A stretch of DNA of 64,000 bases from Escherichia coli (GTDB lineage Bacteria; Pseudomonadota; Gammaproteobacteria; Enterobacterales; Enterobacteriaceae). Shown here in pieces: positions 57,850 through 64,000 of the stretch (position 1 is the stretch's first letter; each line of letters opens with the position of its first letter). A program made the translations under genes and the position numbers. The notes below the pieces were generated by a model. It was not told the origin of the DNA. It saw only the letters and a list, made by a program, of their open reading frames with translations, and did not search any database. The stretch lies in the NCBI RefSeq assembly GCF_003334255.1, contig NZ_QOWU01000002.1. The stretch is one strand, 5' to 3'.

Positions 57850-58311
57850 GTCTGTATTTCCTTATCCAAAGTATGGAGAAGTTAACATTATGTTTCACAA
57901 CTTCATAGTGTCTGGAAGTATTATTTTTATGACAAAGGAAATACTTTGCGCAAATATTTTTTGTTTGATTACCAGCGAAACGTTTCTCTTATTTAAATAA
58001 TTACCCACACAAAATATAGGCTTTTAATTATCAACCTTTATTATAAATAAAAGTTATGAAATATATTCTCTTCGTTAACTTATAATTAAGAGAAAAAAAC
58101 TCACCGCATGGCCATTTAAGCCAGGAATAAATTAGCTTCCCGTTCATCATTTTTGTGATCTTGCGCACATCTTTGAGATAACGCACTTTCTTCACCAGTA
58201 CGTTGCACGCTTTGTCAGCAGAAGATTGCAACAATCTTTCAGAAGGCCGCGAATCCCCCGTTTTGTCGTGGTAATGTATGCACTTTGTGTTAGACGGGAT
58301 AGGTTTTTAAG

Positions 58312-61375: not shown

Positions 61376-62596
61376 TTAGCTCAAGGTATGGGTTACTTCC
61401 TGAATTTTGTCACCATCCAGCTCATGTTCAAAGCTGCGCAGACGTTTGTAGATAGACATCAACTCAACCAGTGTGGTCCATGAGTTAATCAGGTACTGGA
61501 AAGCACCGCGAACCTGACCAAAAACGTTGGTAATCTGCGTCATCAGGCCGAGCGTAATCGTACCGGCAACAATTGACGGAAACAGCAAGAACAAACCGAA
61601 AACGTTATCGACCTGCAAATAGAGAATGCGGGCGATGTTGAAATACATATAGTGAAAATAGAGGCGGAAATAGTTTTTCCGTACGGCGCTAAACAGCTCG
61701 CGTACCGTAGGCGGCGTCGCGCGCGTGGCATCGTCTTCACCATAAACCAGCTCTTTACGGTAGGCAGCCTCTACACGCTGGTTTTTAAACTCCAGCCCCG
61801 GCAGTTTGATCCCTACCACTGCCAGCAATCCGGTCCCCATCAGCGACCAGACGATTGTGGCAATCACCAGACCATACGGAATGTGCCCGATAATCGGCAG
61901 CTCCGGCACATGCGCGGAGAGCGTTACCAGCACCGGCAGGAAGGCGATCAACGTCATGATGGCGTTGATAAAACTGACGCCCATATTCTCCAGCGTTGAA
62001 GCAAAACGCATGGTGTCTTCCTGCACACGCTGTGCGGCCCCTTCGATATGACGCAGTTGTTGCCAGTTCGCCATGTAATATTCGTTCATCGCTGTACGCC
62101 AGCGGAACACGTAGTGACTGACAAAGAAGTTGTTCAGCACACTGATCACCACAGCGATCAGCGCAATCCCCAGAAAGACGCCCACTTCGCGGTAAAATTG
62201 TTCGATGGTGACTTTATGCGGCGAACTTAGCGCGGTTTGAATCAGATCATAGAACGGCGCATACCAGGCGTTGACGGCGACCCCGACTTCCACCAAAAAC
62301 CAGGTGACGAAGATGATCAGTGCAGTACCGAGTATTGACCAGTATTGCCAACGATGCGGGCTGTAGATAAACCAGAACAATGCAAAAAGTCCTACGCAAA
62401 CAATGTAGTAAGCGTAAAAAATCAGGAAATCCAACGACCAGAAACGCGCGGCGCTAATCGGGATCTGCCCGGAAGCGCCGGTGATACGCGCCACCCAGTC
62501 ACCCCCACCGGCTTGCCAGAAGATAACGGCAATCAATGCCCAAACGAAGGCCGAGAGAAAAAACGTTCCCGGCTTTGGGAAAAAAGACTTAAACAT
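61376..62596 (-). CDS. sbmA: Peptide antibiotic transporter SbmA
   Basis: Track ORF begins GTG-CAT-ATG ([19 protein letters not shown]); trimmed to the ATG, 406 aa; multi-pass membrane protein. Confidence 0.93.
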
Positions 62597-62947
62597 ATGC
62601 ACTCCTGCTAACTTCTTATCGTTTTAACAACTGCTGTGTATTAACCGCATGACCGCTACAAAGCGTCAGCCAAATGAAACCGCCCATTGTGACCCATAGC
62701 AAGGCGCTTAGTTCGCCAGCCTGACCATAAGAATTGTTTCGACGGATTTCACAAACCAAAGATTGTTTACATAAGCGGATTAACACGCGCAGGATCACAA
62801 ATGCAGGCATTGGTGAGCAGGAAAAAGATCGTGTTTACGCGCCGTTACGTTTTTAACACTATTATTGCACTAATTCGCCCTTTGCAATCTATCAATGAGT
62901 AGTATAAATACGCTCAGTTACCTTCATTCAATCTATGGACACCACCG

Positions 62948-64000
62948 TTGAAACGTAGTCTGCTTTTTTCTGCCGTGCTGTGTGCGGCGTCATTGACCTC
63001 CGTCCATGCGGCGCAGCCGATCACTGAACCGGAGTTTGCCTCTGATATTGTCGATCGTTATGCCGATCATATTTTTTACGGCAGCGGTGCCACGGGGATG
63101 GCTCTGGTTGTTATCGACGGTAACCAGCGCGTCTTTCGCAGTTATGGCGAAACGCGACCTGGTAATAACGTTCGCCCGCAGCTGGATTCGGTCGTGCGTA
63201 TTGCTTCCCTCACCAAGCTAATGACCAGTGAGATGCTGGTGAAATTGCTCGACCAGGGGACCGTGAAGTTAAACGATCCGCTAAGTAAATATGCTCCGCC
63301 AGGCGCACGCGTGCCAACCTACAATGGGACGCCCATTACGCTGGTCAATCTGGCAACCCATACCAGCGCCCTGCCCCGTGAACAGCCCGGTGGCGCGGCA
63401 CATCGTCCGGTGTTTGTCTGGCCAACGCGCGAGCAACGCTGGAAATACCTTTCTACGGCGAAGCTGAAAGCCGCGCCAGGCAGTCAGGCGGCGTACTCTA
63501 ACCTTGCGTTCGACCTGCTGGCAGATGCACTGGCGAATGCGTCCGGCAAGCCTTATACCCAGTTGTTTGAAGAGCAGATTACCCGTCCATTGGGGATGAA
63601 AGACACCACCTACACCCCCTCACCGGATCAGTGCCGCCGTTTAATGGTTGCTGAGCGCGGTGCCAGTCCGTGCAATAACACGCTGGCGGCAATTGGCAGC
63701 GGCGGCGTCTATTCCACGCCTGGCGATATGATGCGCTGGATGCAGCAGTATTTGTCATCTGATTTTTATCAGCGCAGTAACCAGGCAGATCGCATGCAGA
63801 CGTTGATTTATCAGCGCGCGCAGTTTACGAAAGTGATTGGCATGGATGTCCCCGGCAAAGCGGATGCGCTTGGTTTAGGTTGGGTATATATGGCCCCGAA
63901 AGAGGGTCGTCCGGGGATTATTCAGAAGACAGGCGGTGGTGGCGGTTTCATTACCTATATGGCGATGATCCCGCAGAAGAATATTGGCGCGTTTGTGGTG
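62948..64000 (+). CDS. ampH: Penicillin-binding protein AmpH (class C beta-lactamase fold), N-terminal 351 codons; gene continues beyond window end
   Basis: TTG at 62948 followed in frame by KRSLLFSAVLCAASLTSVHA (signal peptide) and the SxxK active-site motif (IASLTKLMT); frame open to 64000; in-frame stop at 62900-62902 with no ATG in between; not in ORF track because open-ended. Confidence 0.88.
   Translation, partial: MKRSLLFSAVLCAASLTSVHAAQPITEPEFASDIVDRYADHIFYGSGATGMALVVIDGNQRVFRSYGETRPGNNVRPQLDSVVRIASLTKLMTSEMLVKLLDQGTVKLNDPLSKYAPPGARVPTYNGTPITLVNLATHTSALPREQPGGAAHRPVFVWPTREQRWKYLSTAKLKAAPGSQAAYSNLAFDLLADALANASGKPYTQLFEEQITRPLGMKDTTYTPSPDQCRRLMVAERGASPCNNTLAAIGSGGVYSTPGDMMRWMQQYLSSDFYQRSNQADRMQTLIYQRAQFTKVIGMDVPGKADALGLGWVYMAPKEGRPGIIQKTGGGGGFITYMAMIPQKNIGAFVV

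Follow-up and report, generated by a model that had tools for sequence, protein, structure and literature searches.

The ampH gene of Escherichia coli very probably starts at a UUG codon at position 62948 of the DNA analysed here (the window, a stretch of 64,000 nucleotides from contig NZ_QOWU01000002.1 of assembly GCF_003334255.1). From this codon an exported precursor, pre-AmpH, would be made, and the weak start together with a weak GGA element would probably hold the output of this penicillin-binding protein of the periplasm at a modest level that may be under purifying selection. The start itself is already known, being the standard reference annotation (RefSeq, K-12), and ampH belongs in this respect to the ordinary class of UUG-initiated genes. 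What is new is how deeply the TTG and the bases right around it are conserved, the codon being kept in at least two Enterobacterales families. A literature search combining ampH and start codon returned no paper that takes up the start codon of ampH as a subject, within a scope that excluded Henderson 1997 and Gonzalez-Leiza 2011, in which AmpH was first described.

Reading frame, product and genomic setting of ampH

The features of the coding frame are as follows.

62948–64000, plus strand: coding sequence of ampH, truncated at 64000 by the end of the window (the complete gene would reach 64105)
62948–62950, plus strand: TTG initiation codon of ampH (direct reading, RefSeq CDS start, INRI-seq peak, invariance in orthologues)
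62948–63010, plus strand: signal-peptide coding region, codons 1–21, (M)KRSLLFSAVLCAASLTSVHA (from translation; cleavage after VHA predicted by inspection)
62900–62902, plus strand: in-frame TAG closing the frame 5' of the TTG (read directly; bases 1–3 of the conserved TAGTATAAAT block)
62801–62902, plus strand: 33-codon ORF opening with ATG (MQALVSRKKIVFTRRYVFNTIIALIRPLQSINE), in the ampH frame, ending at the TAG and overlapping a promoter-like block

The sequence-only reading had placed the start of ampH at the TTG, below an in-frame TAG at 62900–62902 and with neither ATG nor GTG between the two. Direct reading confirmed the stop, which lies at −48 relative to the TTG, and a script run over the 15 codons in between (TAT AAA TAC GCT CAG TTA CCT TCA TTC AAT CTA TGG ACA CCA CCG) found none of the initiators ATG, GTG, TTG, CTG, ATT, ATC and ATA. 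For the window sequence it holds, as proposed, that no codon other than the TTG could initiate the full signal peptide. Downstream of the TTG the frame encodes KRSLLFSAVLCAASLTSVHA followed by AQPITEPEF and stays open as AmpH until the window ends. The next candidates in frame are a GTG at codon 10 (62975) and an ATG at codon 51 (63098). As the latter is the first in-frame ATG, a start at a downstream ATG would indeed give a protein devoid of the signal peptide, as had been stated. The initiation site proposed from the sequence was borne out by annotation, family fit, INRI-seq and conservation. RefSeq/PGAP starts the ampH CDS at window base 62948 in three E. coli strains, with a product of 385 aa, and K-12 ampH (b0376; WP_000830741.1) is the same gene with the same start codon, with nothing differing at the locus.

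The 33-codon ORF upstream was considered as a lost N-terminal extension of ampH and rejected, since in other species upstream in-frame stops lie at −15 to −294 and the alignment shows the region to be a promoter-like block and not coding. Other species do not conserve it as an ORF, and it probably arose by chance.

The product is the AmpH D,D-carboxypeptidase/endopeptidase equivalog and not a beta-lactamase. It scored 700.6 bits against the AmpH equivalog model NCBIfam NF007943 (cutoff 266), with residues 1–378 aligned to positions 1–380 of 380 and residue 1 placed on profile position 1. Class C beta-lactamases (the AmpC family, PF00144 fold) resemble AmpH in their fold, in the SxxK, YxN and KTG motifs and in an N-terminal Sec signal peptide, but all class C models scored the product far under their cutoffs, at 50–90 bits (for example 89.7 against 415). 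The three serine-peptidase motifs were found in the translation as SLTK, YSN and KTG, and line up with those of 3OZH, a Yersinia homologue of solved structure; the alignment to this homologue (3OZH/3RJU) begins at AmpH query residue 31.

Initiator fMet-tRNA would read the UUG at 62948, so that the primary product would begin with Met. By inspection the N-terminus follows the pattern of K2 R3, then LLFSAVLCAASL, then V-H-A|A, and pre-AmpH would thus bear a 21-residue signal peptide of Sec type, comprising a K2-R3 n-region, a hydrophobic core from L5 to L16 and a V-H-A site for signal peptidase I. Export would cleave it off to leave a mature periplasmic AmpH beginning AQPITEPEF, at the predicted cleavage site. 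The orthologues keep the K-R n-region, the hydrophobic core and the V-Q/H-A | A-Q junction. Removal of the signal peptide takes the N-terminal peptide of AmpH with it and so N-terminomics cannot confirm the start; a search of the TRAINSPOTTER N-terminomics supplements found no ampH entry. AmpH is made in vivo at a modest level, as ribosome profiling gives a synthesis of 400–700 molecules per generation (PMC4916385).

Positions 62603–64000 of the window (1,398 bases) match 5,421 of 5,426 complete E. coli genomes and are 100% identical to several of them, including an MG1655 derivative. Outside the ampH end, this derivative (NZ_CP161802.1) differs from the window by about 0.05–0.2% (99.8–99.95% identity) and by two small indels. 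Over positions 1–48160 there were about 103 mismatches, together with an offset of 102 nt at the left end and a small indel close to 48,060. The source of the window is therefore probably a near relative of K-12 and not MG1655 itself. The gene order at the locus is yaiW-sbmA / ampH / iprA in three annotated E. coli strains, with sbmA divergent and iprA convergent. In E. coli O157:H7 FRIK804 sbmA (locus 275–1441) is annotated 53 nt shorter at the 5' side than in the K-12-like and A10 records (1441 against 1494), which is probably a difference in the start-site call or a local variant. Among the 63 complete annotated CDSs of the syntenic region in the MG1655 derivative, 54 start with ATG, 7 with GTG and 2 with TTG, a tally that rests on the annotation of that strain, with which the window is not exactly collinear. 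The second annotated TTG-start gene, flanked by iraP and ddlA, lies on the minus strand at 58031–58234; its product is a hypothetical protein of 67 aa, WP_001300163.1, with an exact match in the window.

Conservation of the TTG and its flanks

Conservation of the TTG in orthologues had been named as a check on the proposed start, and the aligned codon proved to be TTG in the genomes of 80 out of 80 Enterobacteriaceae species. The set comprised 80 loci from a scan of species-representative genomes covering about 20 genera, among them Escherichia, Salmonella, Citrobacter, Klebsiella, Enterobacter, Kosakonia, Atlantibacter and Franconibacter, with AmpH identities of 83–99%. TTG is invariant in the 76 distinct sequences from these species as well as in the window. 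Across the 247 conserved degenerate codons of ampH the majority codon is shared by a median of 62% of species; as the synonymous sites of the gene drift to this extent, short divergence times do not account for a start codon whose first base never varies. Half of the species (40/80) resemble the window in having the TTG as the sole ATG, GTG or TTG after the upstream stop, and in 18 others alternative in-frame starts occur only far upstream. The remaining 22 carry an in-frame ATG or TTG at most 15 nt upstream, mostly an ATG at 9 nt, and so the TTG is the only possible initiator specifically in E. coli and its closest relatives. Even in these 22 species the aligned codon is still TTG, although five synonyms would be open to it if it were an internal Leu codon.

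Outgroups were gathered by protein search and exact-protein look-ups. The called start is TTG in Cronobacter sakazakii, Serratia quinivorans and Yersinia entomophaga, and in Y. intermedia and Y. ruckeri the TTG AAA is kept and the called start is an in-frame ATG 15 nt upstream, belonging to an ATGGA element. AmpH of Photorhabdus and Xenorhabdus has an unrelated, lipoprotein-like N-terminus with an ATG start. In Photorhabdus temperata and Xenorhabdus miraniensis this N-terminus is longer and holds a lipobox-like LAAC/ISAC motif, which suggests that AmpH occurs as a lipoprotein in Morganellaceae. In E. coli itself, 3,481 of 5,422 records have the exact 57-mer of the window and 1,685 a common one-SNP variant, both with TTG, whereas a mutated-query search for the window 57-mer with ATG or GTG in place of TTG found it in none of the 5,422. 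The count for TTG covers at least 95% of the records, namely those with either of the two exact haplotypes.

The conservation extends to the bases around the codon and to the upstream region, where the following features lie.

62946–62962, plus strand: nearly invariant block CG TTG AAA CGT AGT CTG, −2 to +15 (76 distinct orthologous sequences; synonymous sites frozen too)
62937–62939, plus strand: GGA, a weak Shine-Dalgarno-like element with an 8-nt spacer to the TTG (putative ribosome-binding role)
62935–62958, plus strand: out-of-frame ATG, itself conserved, opening a 7-codon ORF, MDTTVET, that overlaps the TTG and stops at the TAG at 62956–62958
62880–62913, plus strand: promoter-like block of CTTTGCA (62880–62886), a spacer and TAGTATAAATACGC (62900–62913) (from the cross-genus alignment; a putative promoter)

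Across species the first block reads CG TTG AAA CGT NGT CTG and nucleotide conservation peaks at the TTG. Codons 2 (AAA) and 3 (CGT) are among only 8 of the 247 degenerate codons for which a single codon is used in at least 97% of species. The frozen bases from −2 to +15 suggest a constraint on the initiation region at the level of the sequence. A hairpin sequestering the start codon was tried as the cause and rejected, since RNA structure around the start is neither stable nor covarying: the single-sequence fold gave a z-score of −0.03, and the consensus fold of 25 species reached −2.4 kcal/mol with essentially no covariation.

GGA is the only Shine-Dalgarno-like element of the leader and its match is just 3 nt. 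Each of the 81 sequences surveyed has it at −10 to −12, 8–9 nt upstream of the TTG, and it is embedded in NTGGA in 79 of 80 species (ATGGA in 76, GTGGA in 2, TTGGA in 1). The ATGGA (62935–62939) lies 13–15 nt upstream of the TTG and is kept from Escherichia to Serratia and Yersinia, with its ATG out of frame in most species; it may act as a Shine-Dalgarno element through its GGA or as a competing upstream AUG. An ACA triplet occurs at 62939–62941, 9 nt upstream of the TTG, and in a study of the MazF regulon ampH is entered as cut at an ACA that precedes its start by 9 nt (PMC5001579, Table 1). A MazF cut at 62939–62941 would strip the GGA from the ampH leader.

Further upstream, CTTTGCA and TAGTATAAATACGC resemble −35 and −10 elements and are kept across about 20 genera, with TAGTATAAAT found in 71 of 80 species. 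A consensus promoter and terminator scan of 62560–63060 called nothing; as TAGTATAAAT breaks the rule of the scan that requires T at position 6, the promoter is one that we infer from conservation. If the block is a promoter, the TAG at 62900–62902 sits in its −10 region, the mRNA would begin about 30–35 nt ahead of the TTG, which would then come first among the in-frame starts of the message. ChIP-seq has placed an FlhDC peak in the intergenic region of ampH and sbmA with no clear regulation of either gene (PMC4183435). The peak centre falls at about 62886, some 60 bp upstream of the TTG in the intergenic region 62597–62947, by an estimated conversion from older K-12 numbering.

Initiation evidence and alternative starts

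Profiling with an initiation inhibitor, another check that had been put forward for the TTG, came out in its favour in vitro. INRI-seq maps retapamulin-stalled ribosomes in a cell-free system on one synthetic mRNA per K-12 gene, in which a leader of 30 nt precedes the annotated start codon and 150 nt of the coding region (PMC9825163). The ampH oligo, taken from NC_000913.3, reads ...TTACCTTCATTCAATCTATGGACACCACCG TTG AAACGT... (PMC9825163), and since the 30 nt leader is followed directly by TTG, the K-12 reference annotation starts ampH at the codon that lies at 62948 here. A peak was recorded at the annotated start in five of five in-vitro replicates, with values of 41.9, 43.6, 29.7, 44.4 and 43.5 CPM that were flagged as identified (PMC9825163 Table S2), and the complete list of alternative starts holds no ampH entry (PMC9825163 Table S3). 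Ribosomes on the GTG of codon 10 or on the out-of-frame ATG at −13 would give peaks outside the 12–18 nt window for the TTG, and no such peak was called. For in-vivo Ribo-RET (Meydan et al. 2019, tabulated in PMC9825163 Table S2) the ampH value is 0 and the flag FALSE; the direct evidence for initiation thus comes only from the cell-free system on a synthetic fragment.

Another place at which ribosomes might start is the conserved out-of-frame ATG at 62935, 13 nt upstream of the TTG. Ribosomes using this ATG would make it a decoy that competes with the UUG or the start of a coupled leader ORF, the UUG in either case still being the start of AmpH. The element is ATGGA in 76 of the 80 species and the GTGGA and TTGGA of three others are potential starts too; it is kept in Serratia and three Yersinia although the rest of the leader has diverged, and the stop of the small ORF falls at or beside the TTG in many species, as a TGA overlapping TTGA or a TAG at +9. 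The spacing from ATG to TTG, however, can be 13, 14 or 15 nt, which leaves the frame unconserved, and the length of the ORF varies from 5 to 165 codons. The ATG has no Shine-Dalgarno sequence before it, INRI-seq called no alternative start on the ampH fragment in which it is contained, and the role of GGA as the Shine-Dalgarno sequence of the TTG is a simpler account of the conserved core. We therefore regard use of the ATG as quite unlikely, and MDTTVET is probably translated to little extent.

Starts inside the ampH frame fare worse. Initiation at the GTG of codon 10 (62975–62977) would give a product beginning MLCAASLTSVHA, and GTG is indeed a common bacterial initiator, here in frame within the signal-peptide region; yet such a product would be missing the K-R n-region along with much the greater part of the hydrophobic core. 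In 76% of species codon 10 encodes Ala (GCG) and the GTG is thus unconserved; neither a GGA nor a purine-rich tract precedes it at the right distance, and nucleotide conservation peaks at the TTG instead, INRI-seq having reported no alternative start. Together these make the GTG extremely improbable as the start. Initiation at codon 51 (63098–63100), leading to a cytoplasmic protein with no signal peptide, draws on this being the first in-frame ATG of the gene, and the INRI-seq fragment ends at codon 51, so the assay is blind to the ATG at 63098. Ribosomes nevertheless stall at the TTG (INRI-seq, PMC9825163). At the protein level residues 1–50 are kept from genus to genus, and the match to the AmpH profile begins at its position 1, while the crystallised Yersinia homologue aligns from residue 31, ahead of Met51. 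D,D-peptidases that act on peptidoglycan, such as penicillin-binding proteins, must be exported, and AmpH as a peptidase of this kind needs export. All this together leaves the chance of a start at codon 51 next to nil.

A proposed translation set-point of AmpH

With initiation at the UUG, the ribosome-binding site would be weak (GGA only, 8 nt upstream) and the start codon weaker than AUG, which would together give a modest rate of translation. TTG starts make up about 3% of E. coli genes and UUG in reporters yields 10–100% of the output of AUG (10.1101/063800). Like other UUG-initiated bacterial genes, ampH has a near-cognate start that is read by the initiator tRNA with an output under that of AUG. 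What would set ampH apart within this class is a TTG kept in at least two Enterobacterales families, with flanks that are unusually frozen.

The start codon of infC is AUU (10.1101/063800). As background, infC is like ampH in that a non-AUG start would be maintained by selection since it sets or regulates expression. The AUU start of infC, which encodes IF3, underlies its autoregulation, as IF3 discriminates against its own start codon. The UUG of ampH, by contrast, is a canonical start that is not discriminated against, and we know of no feedback loop for ampH.

The strong conservation of the UUG and its flanking bases would place either the set-point or the sequence itself under purifying selection. 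Many genera have held on to this weak start even as synonymous sites nearby drifted, which argues that the low translation rate of AmpH, a peptidoglycan hydrolase, is selected and not accidental. The comparison of orthologues thus suggests, as we infer it, that a low set-point may be the selected trait. A bolder proposal, which we consider rather doubtful, is that the UUG, the ATGGA 13–15 nt upstream and the frozen codons 2–5 (AAA CGT NGT CTG) form one translational control module, acting as a low-output set-point or as a switch and older than the split of Enterobacteriaceae and Yersiniaceae. If the set-point version were true, disruption of the module, for example by changing TTG to ATG, would be harmful as excess AmpH endopeptidase would damage the cell wall; if the switch version were true, the upstream AUG or a trans-acting factor would compete for the initiation region of ampH.

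Taken as a start-codon assignment, the finding is of little weight, as UUG starts are a normal minority class and the ampH TTG is the standard annotation. As to why some genes keep UUG, ampH offers a clean test case, in which a swap to ATG should raise AmpH and might come at a cost to the cell envelope.
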